29,684 bases of DNA from a virus (Duplodnaviria; Caudoviricetes). Below are positions 1 through 13,951 of this stretch, one piece after another (the first letter of the stretch is position 1; every line of letters starts with the position of its first letter). The stretch spans positions 1-29,684 of the IMG/VR virus record IMGVR_UViG_3300014202_001567, one strand, 5' to 3'. Made by a program: the position numbers and the translations under genes. The notes under the pieces are model-generated. The model ran no database searches, was not told where the DNA came from, and worked only from the letters and a program-made list of their open reading frames with translations.

Positions 1-957
1 ATGGATTTAGCTCAAAAATTTGAAATCCACTATCATCTTTTAGACAAAAGCCATTCCATGAATGCTTTCGTCAAAAATAAGTGTGAAGCGGAGTTTCTAG
101 CCGTCGCAAACGAAGTAGCGGAGATTTTAGGTGTCCATCTCGTTTGGGAATCGCAAGCCCTAGAAGAAGGTGGAATACGTGAAATTTGGGTAGCGATTGG
201 GTCAAATAATTCACAGATAGCTCTAATAATTTCTGTATTAGCACTCATTTGGTCTACGGTGCCGCAAACCGATCAGGAATTAGTTGATCTTCAAAAGGAA
301 GAGACTCGGCTGTCCATTGAAGAGAAGAAGCTTGAGATAGAAAAGCTGAAAAAAGAACTAGAAAAAGAAGCTCCATCTCAAGAGGCACTAAAAAGCGCAT
401 CAAAAATTGCTAATGATAGCTACAAGGTAGTTACGAGACGCTCTAATTTCTATAAGTCTATATCTGGGTGCGAAAAGGTATATCAGGTGGGGTTTTCAAG
501 TCTCGATATTGAGAGCCGCCATTTGGGATATGAGCTTGTCGTCGAAAGTAGTGATTTTAGAAAATTTATTGTTACTTCAAATGAGCTACAACCATTAGAA
601 ATTAAATCGGCAAGAATAGAAATAGTTTCTCCCGTTCTTAAAGAGGGAAAAGCAAAATGGAAGGGAATCTACGAGGGCGAGCATATCAGTTTTTCGATGG
701 ATGACCGAGAATTCAAAAGTTCGGTTTTATCGCGTCAAATTTCTTTTAAAAATGGTTCTGAAATAGTTTGTGTTCTTCTCATTCATAAGAAAATCGATGA
801 ACTAGGTGAGGTGGTTACGTCAGGTTATTCTGTAGATGTGGTTCTAGAGAATATTGAATCAGGTTTATCCAAAGAAACGCCACAGGGTAAAAGATATCTT
901 CACACACAAAAGTTACTTGAAGCGCAAATCGACTTGTTTGGAGATAACAATGCCTAA
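1..957 (+). CDS. Integron cassette protein of unknown function (one hydrophobic helix, coiled coil, C-terminal beta-rich domain)
   Basis: 318-aa ORF with hydrophobic QIALIISVLALIW and an E/K-rich coiled coil. The TAA stop (955-957) lies inside the attC R'' box GCCTAAC, as is typical of cassette ORFs. Confidence 0.8.
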   Translation: MDLAQKFEIHYHLLDKSHSMNAFVKNKCEAEFLAVANEVAEILGVHLVWESQALEEGGIREIWVAIGSNNSQIALIISVLALIWSTVPQTDQELVDLQKEETRLSIEEKKLEIEKLKKELEKEAPSQEALKSASKIANDSYKVVTRRSNFYKSISGCEKVYQVGFSSLDIESRHLGYELVVESSDFRKFIVTSNELQPLEIKSARIEIVSPVLKEGKAKWKGIYEGEHISFSMDDREFKSSVLSRQISFKNGSEIVCVLLIHKKIDELGEVVTSGYSVDVVLENIESGLSKETPQGKRYLHTQKLLEAQIDLFGDNNA

Positions 958-1023
958 CAAACGCAGGCGCTAGGACAGAATTTCTGCTGCGCTTCAATTT
1001 TCCCCGTGCTGCGGGCGTTAGAA
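952..1023 (+). mobile_element. attC: attC recombination site 1 (72 bp)
   Basis: R'' GCCTAAC (952-958) and R' GTTAGAA (1017-1023). Inner arms CGCAGGCGC / GTGCTGCG pair with one unpaired extra G, and there is a further inner imperfect palindrome. Confidence 0.85.
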
Positions 1024-1045: not shown

Positions 1046-1762
1046 ATGAAACCAAAATCTGACAATCTGTTTCACTTTACTAGTAGTCTGGATGTACTGA
1101 AATTAATCCTTAAAAACGGAGTTCATCCGAGGTATTGCCTCGAAGATTTAGGGTGGTTTGGAGCTGAGGACTTTAAACACGTAGCGTACCCTATGAGTTG
1201 CTTCTGTGACATTCCTCTTTCACGAATCTCTGAACATACTGACTTTTATGGAATGTATGGCATTGGGTTTACTAAGGAGTGGGGATTAAAGAATGGGCTA
1301 AACCCTGTGATTTATTTAACAGAAGGTGGCTCTGTTTGTGAAATGGTCAAATTTTTCTTCGAGTTGCCCACGCCCGCAGAGCTAGATATATCAGAGGTTA
1401 ACGAGCAGTTGTTTACCCTCTTGTCTCACGTTAAACCTATTAACGGAACAATGTATATGGGTGGCAAACCAGTCGGAAAAGATTTCTATCAAGAAAATGA
1501 ATGGCGATATGTCCCAAAGGTTAATAATTTGATTTTTCATGATAAATTTGAAGAAGAACGAGATGAATCAAATAAAGAAATAGAAAAGCACCGATTGCAA
1601 TTTACGCCTCAAGACATTAAGTATATCTTCGTGAAATCTGACAGTGATATTCCTAGTCTGGTTGATTATATAAATGTCACATTAGGCGCGTTTCCTCACA
1701 ATGACTTAAAAATATTACAGTCTAGGATCATCTCATTGGAAACACTGCGCTCAGATATCTAA
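1046..1762 (+). CDS. AbiGi-family (abortive infection) protein carried as a gene cassette
   Basis: 238 aa with motifs LFHFT, PRYCLED, PMSCFCDIPL, FYGMYGIGFTKEWG, NGLNPVIY and FYQENEWRYVP, which I recognise as AbiGi-like. Only 22 nt separate attC1 from the ATG, leaving no room for a promoter. Confidence 0.8.
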   Translation: MKPKSDNLFHFTSSLDVLKLILKNGVHPRYCLEDLGWFGAEDFKHVAYPMSCFCDIPLSRISEHTDFYGMYGIGFTKEWGLKNGLNPVIYLTEGGSVCEMVKFFFELPTPAELDISEVNEQLFTLLSHVKPINGTMYMGGKPVGKDFYQENEWRYVPKVNNLIFHDKFEEERDESNKEIEKHRLQFTPQDIKYIFVKSDSDIPSLVDYINVTLGAFPHNDLKILQSRIISLETLRSDI

Positions 1763-1763
1763 T

Positions 1764-1888
1764 TTCTAACAAACTGTTTAAGAGTGATCGCAACGCGTGG
1801 AATTTTTTCTATGCGTTGCGTTTTGTGTTTATGGTGGTTTGCGGGAACTTCGGTATTGAGTTGCTCACACCTTAACAGGGCGTTACAC
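1764..1888 (+). mobile_element. attC: attC recombination site 2 (125 bp, Vibrio superintegron repeat-like)
   Basis: R'' TTCTAAC (1764-1770) is the exact complement of GTTAGAA at the start of this cassette. Arms CTGTTTAAGAGTGA / TCACACCTTAACAG pair with an extra T. Internal CGCAACGC/GCGTTGCG hairpin. Ends GGGCG|TTACAC. Confidence 0.92.
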
Positions 1889-2203
1889 CGCTTCCTTGTC
1901 CTTCGGTGCAAAAAATAGCGCGACGGGGCCATCTTCGGTATCGTGAATACTCAGCAAGAATGAACCGGCCTTGTCGCAAACGGGGTGCCAATCGCTGATA
2001 TCGGTGTCGCCCTCGTCAAAGTAGCGCTCGATTAAGTTTTCAGGCGCATCGAGTTCAAACCAAATCGCCACAAACTCGCCGCCTTGGCGTGCCGCCCATG
2101 CTTCACACTCTGCGCGGGTCACACCTTCATCCCACTCGGGCATATCTGGATGGGTCCAATAACCTTCTTCACGTTCTACAGTTGCTGCTTGTATCGGGTT
2201 CAT
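1883..2203 (-). CDS. Conserved-type phage hypothetical protein (106 aa)
   Basis: Start moved to MNPIQ at 2203 (ATGA overlap with the upstream gene, SD AAGGAG). Acidic protein with GYWTHPD and SIHDTEDGPV motifs. Confidence 0.75.
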   Translation of the reverse strand: MNPIQAATVEREEGYWTHPDMPEWDEGVTRAECEAWAARQGGEFVAIWFELDAPENLIERYFDEGDTDISDWHPVCDKAGSFLLSIHDTEDGPVALFFAPKDKEAV

Positions 2204-2430
2204 GCTGCTTCTCCTTTTATCCTGAGTTTTGATTCTGCGTTGAGTGCAAATACTTCGGCGTCGGCTTGGCCGAAGTCGCTGCACTCGATGGCGTTAAAAG
2301 ACTTACAAATGCCCCAACCGTGATAGTTGTTGGGGGTGTACTTCACTTCGATTTGTTGCTGATCGCACATCAAGGTGAAGTAGGGCTTAGATAACGTGAC
2401 CACGCCCGCTTTGGTACTGAACGTATTCAT
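2200..2430 (-). CDS. Phage hypothetical protein
   Basis: 76-aa ORF translationally coupled (ATGA) on both sides. Confidence 0.7.
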   Translation of the reverse strand: MNTFSTKAGVVTLSKPYFTLMCDQQQIEVKYTPNNYHGWGICKSFNAIECSDFGQADAEVFALNAESKLRIKGEAA

Positions 2431-2705
2431 GCCGCCTCCTTGTTTTGGTTGTCGCTTGTTTGGCTGACTGGCGGATGGCAGGGCAGGCGCATAGGGTGAT
2501 ATCGGTACGAATACACTATGGTGCGGCTAATGCCCTTGGCTAGGTTGGTTAAGCCGTTGCCCAATGCTTGCCAGTACAGGCAATCTAACGCGCCCAGTGC
2601 CAGCGCGATTTTGATGCTGTCGCCCGTTTTGGCCTTGAGTAACAGGCTTAACTTATGGCTGCGGTAATGATTTAGCAGATGGCGAAACGCCGCTGATTGA
2701 GTCAT
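2427..2705 (-). CDS. Phage hypothetical protein
   Basis: 92-aa ORF abutting its neighbours in the leftward operon. Confidence 0.65.
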   Translation of the reverse strand: MTQSAAFRHLLNHYRSHKLSLLLKAKTGDSIKIALALGALDCLYWQALGNGLTNLAKGISRTIVYSYRYHPMRLPCHPPVSQTSDNQNKEAA

Positions 2706-2999
2706 TTAGGCCACCTGCTTCGGTTGCAAAGGGCTTGATTGCAAATGAGTTAATTGCAGTTTGGCCCAGTCGATGGCTTTAATGGCCTCGACCGTGGCGG
2801 CGATTTGCTCTAGCTTCTTTTGCCCGCGCATAAAGTTCGACAGTTCAATACCGTGGCGAGCGGCCGCGCGTTCGGCGGGTAGGGCGCTGGTGTAATGCAG
2901 CGTTAACGCCGCAATCACCTCGGGCGAACTAATGCGGGTAAGCGACAGTAATAACGCAACACGCTCTTGTGATTCAAAGCCCGGGAGTAAGTGGTTCAT
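2706..2999 (-). CDS. PapB/FocB-like transcriptional regulator
   Basis: Start MNHLLPG at 2999 (ATGA overlap). LLPG..S.E...LLLSLTRISS..VI.AL followed by an HTH-like segment resembles the PapB family. Confidence 0.6.
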   Translation of the reverse strand: MNHLLPGFESQERVALLLSLTRISSPEVIAALTLHYTSALPAERAAARHGIELSNFMRGQKKLEQIAATVEAIKAIDWAKLQLTHLQSSPLQPKQVA

Positions 3000-3697
3000 G
3001 CTGCACCGCCTGTGGTACTGATCACCTTGAACTTGACCACCCACACCCACGGGTTGGCATCCCAATTTTCATAGATTGAGTTCCATAGGGATTTAAAAGC
3101 ATGCTGTGGGTTTTTATACCAACGCCAATGAGGCGAGTGAGGTTTATGGTTCGAATGCTTTTCAACGCCACCCCAATTTTGGTAAAGGGCGTGATATTGC
3201 AAACCTTCTGCTTTTGCATCTTGCTCGCTGATATCATTTAGCCTTTCTACCCGAACGGCAGTGACTTCAAGCAGAATACGAGCGCAAGAACGAGGCATAT
3301 GGATAGATGGTTTCCATTTGCTTTCGCCACTATCACCCGTTGCTTTGAATAGAACCGTTCCGTTAGCCGGACATGAGCAAGGCGATTCACTGCAACCACA
3401 TTCATTAGATGAATTGAATTTTCGCCAAGTCTCACGCACCCAGAACTGATCGCCAATCGTGCCGAATGGTGAAACAAACGCGCAATCTTCATCGCTAACG
3501 CCAAAAACCTCATCATTGGCTGGTTGATAGAATCCGTGCTTATCAATGACTGTCGGTGTATACCATTCGGCATTTTTAGAAAATGGCGCCCATTCATCAT
3601 GCGGCTGAACTTTAAACACTCTCCGCGTCTGTGTTTTACGTCCATCAACAATGGCTTGCACCATTTCGGTGTTGAAAATAATAGGGCGCTGTTTCAT
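2996..3697 (-). CDS. ASCH/PUA-like phage protein
   Basis: PIIFNTEMVQAIVDGRKTQTRR, WVRETW, WKPSIHMPR and NPWVWVVKF motifs of a widespread phage family. Confidence 0.8.
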   Translation of the reverse strand: MKQRPIIFNTEMVQAIVDGRKTQTRRVFKVQPHDEWAPFSKNAEWYTPTVIDKHGFYQPANDEVFGVSDEDCAFVSPFGTIGDQFWVRETWRKFNSSNECGCSESPCSCPANGTVLFKATGDSGESKWKPSIHMPRSCARILLEVTAVRVERLNDISEQDAKAEGLQYHALYQNWGGVEKHSNHKPHSPHWRWYKNPQHAFKSLWNSIYENWDANPWVWVVKFKVISTTGGAA

Positions 3698-4083
3698 GCC
3701 TCCACCTCATCACATGGGTATTGCTTCCTTACATTACTCATCGCGTCTTCCATGGTGGGGTGACGCTCATTCATTCGGCCCTCACGTTGATGGCATTTAT
3801 GTGCAAAGAGCTTCAACATGCGTGGGCTCGATGGCTCGATTTGAAAGCGGATCATGCGGTCATGTGCAAGAACAACGGCAGTCGTGAGGGCGCTATAGTC
3901 GAAGGTAGACATGTAATGCGCGCTAGTACTGTTGATTGATAACCCGCGCTCACCACAGGCTTGGATTTTGCCAAACATGTGATTGCCGCCGTTGTGAATG
4001 TCACAAAGGAAATCAAAGCACTCACGTTGAACAGCATTGAGCCAAGGGTAATGTTTGGCGTAAAAATCATGTTCGTTGCTCAT
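3694..4083 (-). CDS. Phage hypothetical protein (129 aa)
   Basis: Start MSNEHD at 4083 (ATGA overlap). STFDYSALT..VVLAHDRMIR motif. Confidence 0.7.
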   Translation of the reverse strand: MSNEHDFYAKHYPWLNAVQRECFDFLCDIHNGGNHMFGKIQACGERGLSINSTSAHYMSTFDYSALTTAVVLAHDRMIRFQIEPSSPRMLKLFAHKCHQREGRMNERHPTMEDAMSNVRKQYPCDEVEA

Positions 4084-4637
4084 GCTTGCTCTCCTTGCTT
4101 GATGATTGGCAGTTGAGCAGCTGCGGCACGAACAGCGGCAGCGGCTTCTTTGCCATAGCCCCAAATGTCGCCGTTCTCAGGGTTACAACGAGTAGGCGCT
4201 ATCCAATCTAGTGGTATCAGAGTGCCGTTGGTAATGTAGTCACGCATGGCGCACACTAAGTCGCGTAATGTTCCGCCATGGTGAAACCCGCTCCACTTAC
4301 CACTGTAATGGGTGTAAACCCGTGCTTTGGTATATTCATCAACTAGCCAGACCCTGCCTCTTTTATCCAGCTCAAGCGTTGCTATAACCCCTTTGTGCTC
4401 GAAGAATTTTCGGCCATGTTCGGATATTACTTTTATTAATTCATTCGCATTTTTAACGCGCTTATTGGTTTTTGGCTCTGGTAATTGGTAATAAGAGTCG
4501 CAGCCACATTTAGGGCAAACACGGTTATAAACAGTTAGCGCTTTTGCGGAATATTTAGGGTCTAAAACCTCACTTAACTCTGACTCTCTACCCGTCCAGC
4601 GGCAGGTGCGGCGACTGCATTCGATACGTTGTGACAT
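4080..4637 (-). CDS. Phage hypothetical protein with N-terminal Cys (zinc-binding-like) motif
   Basis: 185 aa with CSRRTC...CPKC; SD AAGGA upstream. Confidence 0.7.
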   Translation of the reverse strand: MSQRIECSRRTCRWTGRESELSEVLDPKYSAKALTVYNRVCPKCGCDSYYQLPEPKTNKRVKNANELIKVISEHGRKFFEHKGVIATLELDKRGRVWLVDEYTKARVYTHYSGKWSGFHHGGTLRDLVCAMRDYITNGTLIPLDWIAPTRCNPENGDIWGYGKEAAAAVRAAAAQLPIIKQGEQA

Positions 4638-4667
4638 GCTCTATTCCTTCTTTCGTGAATAACGTGC

Positions 4668-5411
4668 TTACGCGGCGCTTGGTTGTTCTGCGGCGGTGGT
4701 TGGTGTGTTGTTTGATGGTTTCGATTTTGCGGGTTGCTGACGGCCACAGTGATGAACAAACTCAGGTGGTTTGATGCGGTCTGATTCATCGAGTCGCATT
4801 GGCATCATCATGACGACGATTTCACGTTGAGCACCCATTACTGCGACAGCTGCAGAGTCAGAACCGAAAAAACAAAGATTGGCACCGGCTAACTGGTTGT
4901 GTTTTAGCTTTATTAGGCGGCTAAAAAGCTCAGGATTTATGGCGATTTGACTAACAGATTTAGGTTTATTAAGGCGATCGAATAAGCGACCAGCATTAGG
5001 ATATTGGGCGTCTATTGGGTTGATAAACTCTAGATATGTAACCAAATCCCTGACGGCGTGCTCATTGATATCGTCAAAGTCATTTAGCCAATCTTGAATA
5101 TCATCAATACCCGTTACCATGGCGATGCCGTCGATGATTACCACGTTTTGAGTCGCTAGCATGTATGACGGCACTTGCTTTTTATTCGCAGCTGATAACA
5201 GGGTTTTGCTGATTGGGAAGATGTATTCGCCGTCGCTAACGCCCTCAGCATCGTGAATGGTGACGAGTGTATGGCCGTCGGTGGCGGTGAGGATTACGCC
5301 CTTTTCAGGGTGAGGCTTTACGTGAAAGCCGTTGAGGTAATAGCGCACATCTTGCTTGGCTGCAAATGCGGCTAACATGGCTAAATATTTGTTGTTGAAT
5401 ATGATTTTCAT
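4668..5411 (-). CDS. Truncated DNA polymerase III beta-clamp-like protein
   Basis: DVRYYLNG...TATDGH matches the DnaN central-domain signature; also YPN and a C-terminal MMMPMRL like the DnaN VVMPMRL. About 247 aa from ATG 5411. Confidence 0.65.
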   Translation of the reverse strand: MKIIFNNKYLAMLAAFAAKQDVRYYLNGFHVKPHPEKGVILTATDGHTLVTIHDAEGVSDGEYIFPISKTLLSAANKKQVPSYMLATQNVVIIDGIAMVTGIDDIQDWLNDFDDINEHAVRDLVTYLEFINPIDAQYPNAGRLFDRLNKPKSVSQIAINPELFSRLIKLKHNQLAGANLCFFGSDSAAVAVMGAQREIVVMMMPMRLDESDRIKPPEFVHHCGRQQPAKSKPSNNTPTTAAEQPSAA

Positions 5412-5450
5412 GGCTGCTCTCTGCTCTGTTTTCACTGCACTTAGGTTGCG

Positions 5451-5798
5451 TTACGCTGCGGCTTCGCCGTTAAACACCACCAGATTGATGATGGGTTTCT
5501 TGGTTTTGGGGTTCACCTTGTCCGACAGCTTGTGATAGCGAATATGCACGTCGCGGTGGGCTTCTTGGGTCATGGCTAACACGATGTATTGCTGGCACAG
5601 CGCGGGCGTCGATAACGAATGCGACAGGCGTTGTGGTTTCATGGTTTCAAACAAGTGCTGCGCCATATCATCCAACTTAGCTTGGTACTCGTCGGGGCTT
5701 AGTTGACGGCGGTTAGGGTGCGCGCCTACTGAGGTGCTGCACTTTTTGGCCGCTTGATTTTTCGCTAAGGTCATGGACACGCCGTAAACAAAAAACAT
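5451..5798 (-). CDS. Phage hypothetical protein
   Basis: 115-aa ORF with a strong SD (GGGGAGGT) upstream. Confidence 0.65.
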   Translation of the reverse strand: MFFVYGVSMTLAKNQAAKKCSTSVGAHPNRRQLSPDEYQAKLDDMAQHLFETMKPQRLSHSLSTPALCQQYIVLAMTQEAHRDVHIRYHKLSDKVNPKTKKPIINLVVFNGEAAA

Positions 5799-5823
5799 AG
5801 ATACCTCCCCACTGAGCCGCTGA

Positions 5824-6084
5824 TTACGCTAAGTTGATTTGATCTTGCTTGGCGGCGTCGCGTTGCTTGTCGAGGTATTCGGCAAGGTCGGTGACATTGA
5901 CCATCCAAGGCGCTTTGTTGCTGTTACTGGTGCGAAAGGCGGCTAAGGGCAAGCGGCCGGCTTTGGCATAGTTGGCCGCGGTACGCGGTTCGAGGCCAAA
6001 ATACTCTTTGCTGATTTGATCCAGTGGCACTATCACTTTGTTGAACTGGGCCATAAGCAAAAACGCGGTATTGATGCCTTTCAT
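5824..6084 (-). CDS. Pyocin activator PrtN-family DNA-binding protein (possibly excisionase-like)
   Basis: NTAFLLMAQF...IVPL...EYFGL...AGRLPL...KAPWMVNVTDLAEYLD. Confidence 0.85.
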   Translation of the reverse strand: MKGINTAFLLMAQFNKVIVPLDQISKEYFGLEPRTAANYAKAGRLPLAAFRTSNSNKAPWMVNVTDLAEYLDKQRDAAKQDQINLA

Positions 6085-6434
6085 GTTGGTTGCTCCGCTT
6101 GGGTCAGTTGCAGCGGATGCACGTTAGTGGCCGCCTGTTCGTTACGCCACACCATCACCTTGCCGTACAAACCTTGTTGGGGCTCGGTAAAGCGCAGGCA
6201 GAAGTTCAGCCCGAGTTCGCCCGTGTGGCGTATAAACTGGCGATAAAAGGCTGCGCTAGGGTGGTGATAGGCAAAATGCTTGACCAGTTCGGCGCATCGG
6301 GCTTTTACCCGAGGGCAATCCATCGGGTCGGTGTGGCCCTTAGCCAGCGCCATCAAGCAGGCAAAACGTATCGCAACCAGTAGACGAAACTCATCGCGTT
6401 GCTTAGGTGTGGTGTGAACTTTCGCTAGAATCAT
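6081..6434 (-). CDS. First gene of the PL operon, hypothetical protein
   Basis: Start MILAKV at 6434 with SD GAGG/AGGGA, just downstream of the PL promoter. Confidence 0.65.
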   Translation of the reverse strand: MILAKVHTTPKQRDEFRLLVAIRFACLMALAKGHTDPMDCPRVKARCAELVKHFAYHHPSAAFYRQFIRHTGELGLNFCLRFTEPQQGLYGKVMVWRNEQAATNVHPLQLTQAEQPT

Positions 6435-6456
6435 TTCCCTGTCCTCGGTAGTTTGT

Positions 6457-6525
6457 TTAAGTTTTCTTAAAAGCAATTTAGGAAAACCTAAGTAAAAGGT
6501 CAAGTTAAAACTTAGGAAAACTTAA
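6457..6525 (-). promoter_or_regulatory. OL operators (3 sites) and PL promoter
   Basis: 14-bp imperfect palindromes TTAAGTTTTCTTAA (6457-6470), TTAGGAAAACCTAA (6478-6491) and TTAGGAAAACTTAA (6512-6525). Minus-strand TTGACC (6503-6498), 17 bp, TAAATT (6480-6475). Confidence 0.85.
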
Positions 6526-6621: not shown

Positions 6622-7452
6622 ATGCCAATCACTTGCCCCTCATGTCAATTTATTCGTGAAGATGATCAACATTTGGATGTTCCAGAATGGAAATGTCCTA
6701 ATTGCGACATTGTTTATGAGAAATTTATCAAAAATTCTAGTGATGGCTCTATTCCTATCAGTCCTTCAACGCTAAAGCCAGTCGATCCAACTCTTAATCC
6801 TGAAAGTCCAGCCGAGCCTAATGCTAAACATTTCGATGCAAAGGCATCGGCCAAGCAAATCACTTATAAGCCAGAACCTACTCAGTCTAAGGCGCGTCAA
6901 TTTATTGAGCGTTATGATCTTGGGAATTTTGTGACAGCAAAAGGTGGTTTGATTATGTTACTAGTGTTTCTCGTGGGGTTCTTTGCTGGAAGGGAGTATT
7001 TTAAATATGAGTTAAGGCAAGCGGTTGGTTCGGCATTTGCGGGGATCGGTGAGCGTTTTAAACCTAATAAAAGTGAGTCTACAATATCTAAATTATTTGC
7101 TAAATCAAATGCTTTACCAGTTTCACTAGTGCGAATCGATTATGAAGAAGTGAAATCTATTATTGGAGGACTATTAAAGTTTACCATCAATTTTAAAAAT
7201 ACTTTTGATAAAAAAATCATTGGTTTCAATGGAGATCTTACATTTAGCGATATTTTGGATAATAAAATAGAGAGTTTTAGAGTTACCTTTACAGAAGGTG
7301 TCAATGTAGGTGAGATTATTGAGTTTACAGATGAAAAGTGGGTTGATAGTAGCCTAAAAAGTTTTAAAGGCGGCAGGATAGACCAATTAAAAGTAAAACT
7401 GACGCTTACAAAGGTTATGTTTGCAGATGGAACTGTAGAAGATTTTGATTAA
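6622..7452 (+). CDS. Accessory membrane protein with N-terminal zinc ribbon
   Basis: CPSC...CPNC, Pro-rich linker, one TM helix (GGLIMLLVFLVGFFAG) and a C-terminal soluble domain. AT-rich. Confidence 0.75.
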   Translation: MPITCPSCQFIREDDQHLDVPEWKCPNCDIVYEKFIKNSSDGSIPISPSTLKPVDPTLNPESPAEPNAKHFDAKASAKQITYKPEPTQSKARQFIERYDLGNFVTAKGGLIMLLVFLVGFFAGREYFKYELRQAVGSAFAGIGERFKPNKSESTISKLFAKSNALPVSLVRIDYEEVKSIIGGLLKFTINFKNTFDKKIIGFNGDLTFSDILDNKIESFRVTFTEGVNVGEIIEFTDEKWVDSSLKSFKGGRIDQLKVKLTLTKVMFADGTVEDFD

Positions 7453-7463
7453 TTTGACAAAGA

Positions 7464-7485
7464 AAAACCCGCAGTAGCGGGTTTT
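7464..7485. terminator. Bidirectional intrinsic terminator
   Basis: AAAACCCGC-AGTA-GCGGGTTTT between convergent genes. Confidence 0.85.
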
Positions 7486-7885
7486 AATTGTTGTCTCTAA
7501 AATCTTCGGCCTTTAGTTTATAGCTTCGCATTAGAGAATGGTTTTTACAAACGTTATGGGCATCATCTTGAATAACATCCATCACTAAGTATTGGTCAGG
7601 ATCTAAATCGCCAGATGTATAAACGAGGTATGAATCACTCGTTTTGCCTGCGAACCATGTTTTTTTGCAAGAAATTCCATCCACGTATACGTGAAGGTGA
7701 TGAACTTCTGCACCAAACATCGAGTCGGGTCTTAAAAATGGTGCATCTTTACCTAGATAAGCTGGTTTTTTTCGCTTATTAGAGTCAAAGTAGGCTTCTA
7801 AATCTTTTTGTAGCTGAGAAAGCTCAAAACCCATGCGTTTGAGCTCAACCTCAAGTCCTTCCATGAAAGTTACTGTGCTAACCAC
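7484..7885 (-). CDS. yafO: YafO-family toxin (mRNA interferase)
   Basis: LGKDAPFLRP...VHHLHV...W...KTSDSYLVY...DDAH motifs of the YafO family. Confidence 0.75.
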   Translation of the reverse strand: MVSTVTFMEGLEVELKRMGFELSQLQKDLEAYFDSNKRKKPAYLGKDAPFLRPDSMFGAEVHHLHVYVDGISCKKTWFAGKTSDSYLVYTSGDLDPDQYLVMDVIQDDAHNVCKNHSLMRSYKLKAEDFRDNN

Positions 7886-7906
7886 TCGTAACCACTCCTT
7901 AAAAAA

Positions 7907-8425
7907 TTAGTGCCTGCCGTACACTTTGTTGCTAGCGTCAACTGCTGCAAGCCAAAACTCTTTAGACGGAGTGAAGTGTGTATCAGTAATAATTTCAACA
8001 TCACCAAGTTGCTCGGCATAAAAAGCCGCGACATTACTAATTACTTTATAAAGTTGACCATATGTGGCAACTACTTTGCGCAGTAATAAATAACCTTCTT
8101 CACCATGTTCTAAGCGAACTTCTTCACCTGTTTTAGTGAAAAAGCTTTTCATTAATCGGCTATAGCCTTTTAGCGTTGACTCTAAATCTAGCAAATTTTG
8201 ATATTCAGCTTCTTCAATAACTTGCGCACCATTACATAAATCATAATAGTATTGTTTGAAATCCAGCAACACTTTGCCAAGCTCATGGATACGACATTCT
8301 AAGTTTTTATATGTCGAATTTTTGTGGCAGTTTTCAGCTACAACGCCGGTATTTGATAGCATACTGGCTTCTACATTTGCTGTAGTTATGCCAAATGCAC
8401 TTGAAATGATAGTGGCGATTAGCAT
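7907..8425 (-). CDS. Putative antitoxin or partner of YafO, helical protein of unknown family
   Basis: Lies directly upstream of yafO (21-nt gap). Likely start ATG 8425 after AAGGGGGG; alternative start at 8443. Confidence 0.55.
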   Translation of the reverse strand: MLIATIISSAFGITTANVEASMLSNTGVVAENCHKNSTYKNLECRIHELGKVLLDFKQYYYDLCNGAQVIEEAEYQNLLDLESTLKGYSRLMKSFFTKTGEEVRLEHGEEGYLLLRKVVATYGQLYKVISNVAAFYAEQLGDVEIITDTHFTPSKEFWLAAVDASNKVYGRH

Positions 8426-8529
8426 AGCAGATCCCCCCTTCATAATGACTACTCCGTATTTAGTATAGCAGCTTAGACACAAAAGGCCTGTTACATAGTG
8501 TAAACAGACCTACTTTCTAAGGCCGCGAC

Positions 8530-12022: not shown

Positions 12023-12705
12023 CTGCCAAGCAAAATACGAGCATGAAATCACTGCAAACCTTAATCCGCCAGCCGCTGGTTGGGCAGGGCGCGCGGGTGG
12101 CGCAACCCGAGCCGACGGCAATGGATATGGCGATTGTGGACAGCGTGTTTAGCAAGTTGCGGGTGTTGTTCCCTGTGAGTGCGCCGCGGCCTGAGGACGA
12201 AGCGACCCACAAATGTGAGTGGCTTAAAACCTTGGCCGCGCAGGGCATTGCGAGCCGCGAGCAAGTGCAAGCGGGGCTGAATCGCGCTAGACGCGAGCAG
12301 GGCGATAGGCAGTTTTGGCCGACACCGCGCCAGTTTGCGCTTTGGTGCCAACCGACAGCCTGTGATTTAGGATTGCCCAAGTTAGAGGCGGCGTTTAAGG
12401 AAGCAACGCGCCATTACCATCACCCTGATAAGCATACGTGGAGCCATGATGTGGTGCGCTTAGCGGTGCGTGAGACGGGCAGTTGGATGTTTGCGACTGG
12501 GCTTGAGAAGGACGTGTTGATGACGTTTGAGCGCAATTACACAGTCTTATGCAGACGCTTTAGCCGTGGCGAGTTGACCGATGTTGAGTTGCCTAAGGCA
12601 TTACCTGAAACGGTGACGCGGCCGACTGAGGCGGCAAAGGCAAAATCGATTATTGCCAATTTACGGGCAAACCTAGGGCTTAAGGGGGCAAACGATGGCT
12701 GCTAG
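12019..12705 (+). CDS. Replication protein P-like helicase loader
   Basis: Follows O with an ATGA overlap. K.EWLKTLAAQGI...QVQAGL..AR...FWPTPRQFALWC motif. Confidence 0.85.
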   Translation: MTAKQNTSMKSLQTLIRQPLVGQGARVAQPEPTAMDMAIVDSVFSKLRVLFPVSAPRPEDEATHKCEWLKTLAAQGIASREQVQAGLNRARREQGDRQFWPTPRQFALWCQPTACDLGLPKLEAAFKEATRHYHHPDKHTWSHDVVRLAVRETGSWMFATGLEKDVLMTFERNYTVLCRRFSRGELTDVELPKALPETVTRPTEAAKAKSIIANLRANLGLKGANDGC

Positions 12706-13951
12706 CGGGGTTGAGGTGGGTAAGTTGAACGATGCAGCACTGCGCCGTTGGTTACGTGGCGGTTTGACTCGGGATTTTAGGGACCCGCAGTTTCCTGAGC
12801 TGCGTTTACGGGCAACGGCGGATAGGACGAAGGCGAGCGTGCATTTGGTGATTAATGAGGGCGATAAAACCGTTTGGAAGAAGCAAGGCGTGTGGCCGAG
12901 CATGTGCATTAAGACGTTTTTGGCGGATTTACCTGTGATGCTGGCTAAGCGTAGTGCGGGCGCGGATGTGTTGCGCGGTGAGTTTGCTACTGTGACTGAT
13001 TTGCTGTTGTGGTATGGGGATTATTTGGATGGTAATACGACGTTAAGCCCGAGCTGGCGCGATAACTGTAGGTCGATTATGCGTAAGCAGTTGTTGCCTA
13101 AGTTGGGTGATGTGGCTTTGGCTGAGTTGTCGTTTTTGGTGGTGGATAGTGCGTTGGTGAAGCTGATGCTGAATGAGGGTTATGCGCCGCATTACATTCG
13201 TTTGAGTGTGAATGTGCTTAAGCGGGCGTTGAGTTTGGCGGCGGATTTTAGGTTGTTATTGCTTAATCCTCTGATGGGTTATCGAGTGACGATGAGTTTA
13301 ACCTTATCACCTAAGCCTGATACGCGCTTGATGGAGTCGGACTTAGGGCCGTTGTTTGTGGCGTTGCGTGATGCATTTATGCCGGTGGCGATGTTGTTTA
13401 TGTTGATGCTGATGTTTGGCACGCGCATTGGTGAAACCCGTTTGGCACGATGGGAGCATTTTGCGGGTGAGTTTTGGTTTATTCCTGCGGCGAACGCGAA
13501 GAACCGCCAAGAGCACCGGCTACCGTTAACGCCTACGGCTAAGGCGTTGATCCAGCATTATTTGCAGTGGCAGCTTAAAAATGTGGGTAAGCGGGCGTTT
13601 TTGTTTGCGGGTGATGTGGGCGCTATTAGCCAGCGCACTGCGCATTATTGGAGTGAGACGATTCGGTTTAAAGAGTTTACCTCGCATGATTTGCGCAAGC
13701 TTTGCCGGACGATTATTCAAGACATGGGTGTCGATACTATGGTGGGTGAGCGGTTGCTTAATCATGCCTTGCCTGTGCTTTTGCGTACCTATGTTCATTC
13801 GACGTTGGATAAGGGCATGTTGAGTGCGCTTGATGCGTATCACGCGCATTTAATTTCGCTCGGTTTTAGTGAGGTTGCGCCCGAGATAATCCCTAGATCG
13901 CCTGTGAATGTTGGGAGTGTTCAAACCCTTGGTGTGAGTGGGTGGCTGTGA
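12695..13951 (+). CDS. Tyrosine recombinase (phage integrase family)
   Basis: Catalytic set is intact: GTRIGE (R), NAKN (K), SHDLRK (HxxR), LLNH (H), RTYVH (Y). Confidence 0.9.
   Translation: MAASGVEVGKLNDAALRRWLRGGLTRDFRDPQFPELRLRATADRTKASVHLVINEGDKTVWKKQGVWPSMCIKTFLADLPVMLAKRSAGADVLRGEFATVTDLLLWYGDYLDGNTTLSPSWRDNCRSIMRKQLLPKLGDVALAELSFLVVDSALVKLMLNEGYAPHYIRLSVNVLKRALSLAADFRLLLLNPLMGYRVTMSLTLSPKPDTRLMESDLGPLFVALRDAFMPVAMLFMLMLMFGTRIGETRLARWEHFAGEFWFIPAANAKNRQEHRLPLTPTAKALIQHYLQWQLKNVGKRAFLFAGDVGAISQRTAHYWSETIRFKEFTSHDLRKLCRTIIQDMGVDTMVGERLLNHALPVLLRTYVHSTLDKGMLSALDAYHAHLISLGFSEVAPEIIPRSPVNVGSVQTLGVSGWL

Follow-up and report, generated by a model that had tools for sequence, protein, structure and literature searches.

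In the window analysed here, which is the entire 29,684-bp contig of the record, the last attC site of a gene cassette array is joined to a phage gene exactly at the stop codon of that gene (junction G|TTACAC, positions 1882-1888, plus strand). The best explanation, with a probability of roughly 0.65, is that this junction is the terminal attC of an array carried by a prophage, that it arose from a deletion made by the integron integrase (IntI) at a secondary site, and that the array end was kept through cassette turnover.

The attC ends on the stop codon as the initial annotation had claimed: its final G lies at 1882, and the TTA at 1883-1885, read on the minus strand, is the TAA stop that closes the ORF at 1883-2203. 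This ORF is a 106-aa phage gene (phrog_1372, function unknown) whose end reads AAGGAAGCGGTGTAA and which is the leftmost remaining gene of the early-left operon (1883-6503, minus strand), an operon of 11 genes, six of them ATGA stop/start-coupled, that converges on the cassettes. The gene is whole up to its TAA stop, and a true attC meets non-cassette phage DNA, not another cassette, at G|TT, both in agreement with the earlier description; the reported misfit of the right half to GTTRRRY also stands, GTTACAC deviating at one position only (the 5th, C). On the plus strand of the early operon (1883-6500), 5 of the 72 TTA triplets (7%) are TAA stops, so that landing on a stop is, taken alone, only mildly unexpected; one of the 15 native GTTA sites in the operon is a stop (gene 5451-5798). 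The similarity of the window to most close relatives ends at 5452 (5451-5452), at the stop codon of a 115-aa gene; on the plus strand this place reads GTTAC, and it looks like a module-exchange boundary.

Two cassettes precede the junction. Cassette 1, whose 5' end lies outside the record, carries an ORF of 318 aa (1-957, plus strand) that matches the PADLOC candidate defence family PDC-S42 (E 6e-120); its protein has 435 relatives, and no Pfam family was matched. Its attC1 (952-1017, plus strand) is of the short type, starts with GCCTAAC, has its crossover at G(1017)|TTAGAA and shows 83-85% similarity to sites in three plasmid records. The ORF of cassette 2 (1046-1762, plus strand) encodes a 238-aa AbiGi-like protein (Pfam PF10899, E 1e-32; PADLOC AbiGi, E 8e-56) that falls below the NCBIfam AbiGI cut-off. 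Both cassettes look defence-like by prediction (PDC-S42 and AbiGi). Cassettes 1 and 2 occur in none of the 148 Shewanella genomes, and cassette 1 is encoded by no viral contig searched, the plasmid matches being to attC1 alone.

The array ends in attC2 (1764-1882, plus strand), a long, Vibrio-like site identified by its boxes and by similarity. Its boxes are R''=TTCTAAC, L''=GTTTAAGA and L'=CCTTAAC. R'' is complementary at 7 of 7 positions to the cassette 2 start, G|TTAGAA (1017), its first base being T and not the R of RYYYAAC; since R'' is the exact reverse complement of its own cassette start, cassette 2 (1018-1882) is a closed cassette. The site is 92% identical over 120 nt to a cassette-array site of Vibrio phage Va_90-11-286_p16 (MK672802) and 88% identical to attC3 of the array in the G006 prophage. 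Against 200 shuffled sequences, its bottom strand gives a better fold than 199 (z -2.6); the free fold leaves the outer arms unpaired (forced fold -14.1 vs free -16.0 kcal/mol), and attC3 of G006 adopts the canonical fold without forcing. With two attC sites in one orientation, attC1 and attC2 would make up a CALIN; no intI adjoins the arrays of G006, G007 and G022. Heuristic scans for attC sites and cassette closure miss true sites and give chance hits, and no counts are based on them. A promoter scan returned 0 sites in 900-2400, and a minus-strand terminator-like site is absent between the phage gene and the AbiGi-like gene; antisense read-through from the phage gene into the cassettes would be possible.

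From the ATG of the first cassette gene the record extends into a long tail gene, labelled as tape measure by its position, and breaks off there, before any integrase. Phage genes found by Pfam search include cI/Cro, lambda-P-like replication, terminase and portal genes, and the nearest named relatives of the phage are Shewanella prophages (protein identity 94%, 94%, 90% and 84%); the window is a member of a family of lambda-like Shewanella prophages and represents a temperate phage of Shewanella type. The gene labels HEPN, GNAT, MCP, xis and IS are readings of translations. The window is 94% identical to the G006 prophage over 9.3 kb, and both phage ends are absent from it; its attI, attL and dusA integrase would correspond to those of its relatives.

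The relatives form two groups according to the position of the integrase. In group 1 (L001, L002, L004, L012, L013, L081 and L326) the integrase lies just beyond the early operon. In group 2 it lies at the far end, adjoining a full DusA gene, and a short dusA 5' repeat lies at the left end; the closest whole relatives of the window are integrated in dusA and have the integrase at the far end. The dusA-type integrase was matched in 26 of the 148 Shewanella genomes (E 1e-60), and the arrangement of integrase beside dusA with the dusA 5' repeat at the other end was seen in G022, G008, G012, G023, G034, G046 and G113. All records with a junction at or in the 106-aa gene that reach the right end (G001, G002 and G003) carry the dusA-type integrase there, and G007 holds one such prophage, in pieces, with the integrase at the dusA attachment repeat. 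Because group 2 has no integration function beyond the early operon, deletions there would be tolerable.

No IntI was found within the window by Pfam and NCBIfam-type profile searches, the record ending at cassette 1, and the tyrosine recombinase at 12695-13951 does not match the integron-integrase model. That gene is a second, conserved tyrosine-recombinase gene located after the lambda-P-like gene in all family members seen. Among the Shewanella genomes, 91 of 148 have an IntI above the cut-off; intact intI is absent from G006 and G007, both draft assemblies. The possibility that the prophage is itself a giant cassette inside a chromosomal superintegron was considered and ruled out by the phage's own integrase beside dusA at the right ends and by the position of the cassettes inside attL.

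The allele series of the 106-aa gene comprises 27 distinct members (at least 75% identity). In nineteen of them phage DNA continues past the gene, in 14 cases via a GCATGA stop/start overlap, so the phage genes downstream of the gene are indeed missing from the window, as had been suspected. In four of the 27, an attC is joined at the same stop with other cassettes, either at G|TTACGC with TAA (L008) or at G|TCACGC with TGA (L003, L009 and L083); the terminal cassettes differ among the window, L008 and the L003 type, and two other terminal attC sequences are present in the relatives. In the rest, the gene is cut by an IS (L010), is truncated at 45 codons with over half lost and no attC at the break (L018 and L019), or diverges from phage DNA 20 nt inside, with 10 nt of flank visible (L007). 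The breaks in L018, L019 and L010 indicate that IntI-independent deletions also happen at this gene. A metagenome scan added seven further alleles, all lacking the junction; three records came from a pattern scan of viral contigs, all already in the set; and the independent runs X1 and X2 also contain run-on alleles, which diverge at 1888.

With regard to the target, a native TAA-C at the stop codon of the gene was seen in 0 of the 19 run-on alleles, so that the target itself is unobserved. In L012, a TAA-C stop lies at a later position, reached by read-through, with phage DNA after it; together with the native TAA-C of the window gene at 5451-5798, this implies that such targets exist in the family. 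Compared with the GWT core of attG sites, both the T at +1 and the T at +2 agree in the window and in L008, and the -1 base now comes from the attC. The right-hand attG motif CRGM agrees by eye at 3 of 4 positions in the window, and no argument is built on it. The G|TC of L003, L009 and L083 fits neither GTT nor the attG GWT consensus and would need a later TAA-to-TGA change or a looser integrase. A single clade of the five stop-junction alleles is weakly rejected (p-AU 0.034, for a mosaic gene of 300 nt), and the gene tree (20 rows, 12 of 17 inner branches open) does not separate one origin from several.

The left flank of such an array is visible in a single stop-junction relative, G001/G007, in which G001 bridges two G007 contigs (99.7% over 365 nt and 96.8% over 999 nt). 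The order there is a toxin-antitoxin pair, an attI-like site, three cassettes and the stop junction, without intI; the array is headed by an attI copy and not by phage operon DNA. The attI-like site shares 75% and 82% identity with two attI regions of Shewanella that are linked to intI, and the motif is taken as attI because it lies upstream of intI, heads a closed cassette (L140) and matches the Shewanella attI printed in PMC9892861. The attL contig of G007 is probably linked to the remainder, as both end in the same IS.

Across the family, attI-like sites occur in the attL-proximal slot in 3 of the 12 prophages examined (G006, G007 and G034); the count leaves out a thirteenth prophage, G052, which breaks off where its contig does. 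The complete chromosome G022 has one closed cassette between attL and the phage genes, without a clear attI. The arrays of G006 and G022 start directly after a 161-aa gene next to attL, far from the stop of the 106-aa gene, and in the cassette-free G008 the operon continues with further phage genes to an inverted repeat with T runs beside the 161-aa gene. By analogy with these relatives, the cassettes of the window would occupy a cargo slot beside attL. An X2 contig covering about 420 nt upstream of cassette 1 shows no match to the attI stretch of G006, and a link between cassette 1 and attI was thus not seen; in X1, the contigs with attI and with the 161-aa gene have depths of 17-28, compared to 21 for the window-like contig, and as none of them is linked this does not count as evidence. 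After the toxin-antitoxin pair in G006, L134 4435-4650 (G006:C3) contains a degenerate copy of the 3' end of the 106-aa gene and also a 77% copy of the 3' end of the 161-aa gene.

Based on the results presented above, the following sequence of events may be proposed for the deletion by IntI. The phage would integrate in dusA via the far-end integrase, as its relatives do, leaving the DNA from attL to the early operon as dispensable cargo space. In this slot an attI copy without intI would have settled and gathered cassettes, as in three relatives. Acting in trans, host IntI may then have used the GTT-like core of the reversed stop codon as partner for attI or for the last attC, and this recombination would have deleted the intervening distal early genes. 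Subsequently, excision by attC x attC and insertion by attI x attC would swap cassettes and keep the last right half, and because that half is always kept, different terminal cassettes would end at the same base, as they do in the alleles. Cassettes are described as entering at attI and leaving by attC x attC recombination (10.1101/2022.09.11.507474), from which it follows that the bases after the last attC are unchanged by turnover; in the same source, excision by IntI1 outside the insertion point deletes flanking DNA. The likely benefit to the bearer would be that the prophage brings a set of defence genes that can be exchanged.

A deletion independent of IntI, in which slippage or microhomology would have removed the DNA between a point just within a cassette start and the end of the gene, is a less probable but fair alternative. 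The TT would then derive from the cassette, and the junction would have created the TAA stop from a GTGA-coupled ancestor. In keeping with this, all five stop-junction alleles have a G before the stop, as in GTGA-coupled ends (L232 has GTGTGA and then AGC), and the run-on alleles mostly end otherwise, in GCATGA; the last attC of the array beside cI in the L006 record also appears to be cut inside its L' arm, and the breaks in L018 and L019 lack an attC. However, GCG before a TAA end is native in 3 of the 11 early operon genes, and the attC is complete to the exact cut-point G in five of five alleles, with the match to phage DNA starting there or a few bases on. In addition, L007 leaves phage DNA at a perfect G|TTAGGT, where 10 nt of flank are visible.

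The initial annotation had instead proposed a clean insertion of a cassette at the stop codon, with later cassettes added and the displaced phage genes lying to the left of the array. The crossover geometry fits this proposal, the ORF is intact, and insertion into attG sites at GWT is efficient with IntI1-3 (10.1101/2022.09.11.507474); since the left end of the window is absent from the record, it retains some small likelihood. Nevertheless, the empty site that it predicts, G|TTACACC, was found in 0 of the 19 run-on relatives, the arrays of G006 and G022 lie far from the stop, and the left flank in G001/G007 is attI. The attI flank and the lack of empty sites together indicate that the junction is most likely the end of a deletion and not a clean insertion; of the earlier proposal, the loss of downstream genes is supported and the clean insertion is not. 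Lastly, an assembly chimera of a chromosomal integron and a prophage, which might be suspected from the repetitive nature of attC sites and from the start of the record at the ATG of the first cassette, is largely refuted by a 2027-bp contig of X1 that covers 1-1934 with 14 differences and no gaps and thus shows that the junction is not an assembly artefact, by four other records that share the junction position, and by the complete genome G022, which has a cassette between attL and phage genes. A 390-bp X2 contig covers 1856-2245, reaching just 27 nt to the left of the junction, below the 31-nt bridging rule.

A second slot lies between the early operon and cI. In L006, L018 and L019 this slot holds a near-canonical attI with cassettes and no intI, and in L220 it holds a degenerate attI. 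The array end meets the phage flank there at three places. One is common to L019 and L220, whose last cassettes differ; the end lies about 9 nt further in L018 and about 115 nt further in L006 (distances by eye). The sharing of an end by different last cassettes repeats the pattern found at the stop codon. The corresponding slot of the window (6622-8482) has no attI; it contains a 276-aa gene and a gene for a YafO-like toxin, with its partner upstream, at a place where attI arrays or other cargo are found in relatives.

Copies of attI are also scattered over Shewanella genomes. A non-coding module of at most about 380 bp that ends in attI, without adjoining intI, occurs at several places per genome; matches were obtained in 86 of the 148 Shewanella genomes, 40 of them with four or more, where four candidates were scored per genome and some matches may be pieces or the intI-linked copy. 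At 7 of 10 loci examined, the exact attI motif heads ORFs without a nearby intI (the loci include L221, L222, L225, L228, L229 and L230). At G022:C1:1620000-1665000 (L224, L325 and L326), in a prophage of the same family, the replication and late-regulator genes are directly followed by a complete integron with intI, attI and a long array, past which neither head nor tail genes were seen. Arrays headed by attI are also found in P2-like and other Shewanella-type phage records (L226, which is G017:C36; L316, L317, L318 and L321), one of which has two attI copies. Tentatively, and with considerable doubt as to the whole, lambda-like Shewanella prophages may be working, integrase-free integron platforms, in which a mobile promoter-attI module sits in two slots, host IntI loads and swaps defence cassettes, and IntI trims the phage at reversed stop codons while sparing the gene; the solo attI module, with at least four copies in at least 40 of 148 genomes, might then be an undescribed array-seeding unit.

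Several known systems share features with this family. The Shewanella prophage vB_SspM_M16-3 harbours a complete integron as well as a CALIN with its own attI (PMC9892861), and has in common with the relatives described here the same Shewanella attI motif heading an integrase-less array in a prophage. M16-3 is a single cryptic prophage, P2-like by annotation, that encodes IntI, and illegitimate or homologous recombination was raised in that report for its array boundaries; in contrast, the present family is lambda-like and of dusA type, has two variable slots and shows a junction common to several alleles. Integrase-less attI arrays in prophages are known from M16-3; the novelty here lies in the slot at family level and in the sharing of the stop codon junction.

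Secondary-site recombination at attG has been described for the mobile-integron integrases IntI1-3 in E. coli and V. cholerae (10.1101/2022.09.11.507474), and it resembles the present junction in that an attC is joined to non-att DNA at G|TT and, on the proposed reading, in that flanking DNA is deleted by outside excision. The differences are that the junction described here is natural, that the -1 base of the target is lost and that three alleles have G|TC; the word 'prophage' is absent from the main text of that study. The integrase beside DusA and the dusA 5' repeat of the relatives are shared with islands and prophages of dusA-associated integrases (DAI; PMC4482086, and Shewanella SP1, PMC10845958), for which cassette arrays are not described in the accessible text of either source, the terms 'attC' and 'integron' being absent from that of the latter. 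CALINs and SALINs far from intI are common in Shewanella genomes (PMC9229058), and the accessible text of that survey mentions neither 'phage' nor 'prophage' and reports no attI copies heading clusters. A literature search, with subscription journals mostly outside it, returned nothing on arrays in dusA-type Shewanella prophages, on stop codon junctions or on multi-copy solo attI.

Taken alone, the stop codon junction is a modest detail. As the probable natural footprint of integron recombination at a non-att site, it would represent an event so far shown mainly in laboratory assays, and the family allows the empty, loaded and trimmed states of a phage-borne platform to be compared, whereas the literature found consists of single cases. 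Should these arrays be edited in trans by host IntI, temperate phages would provide a two-way route for defence cassettes to and from chromosomal integrons.
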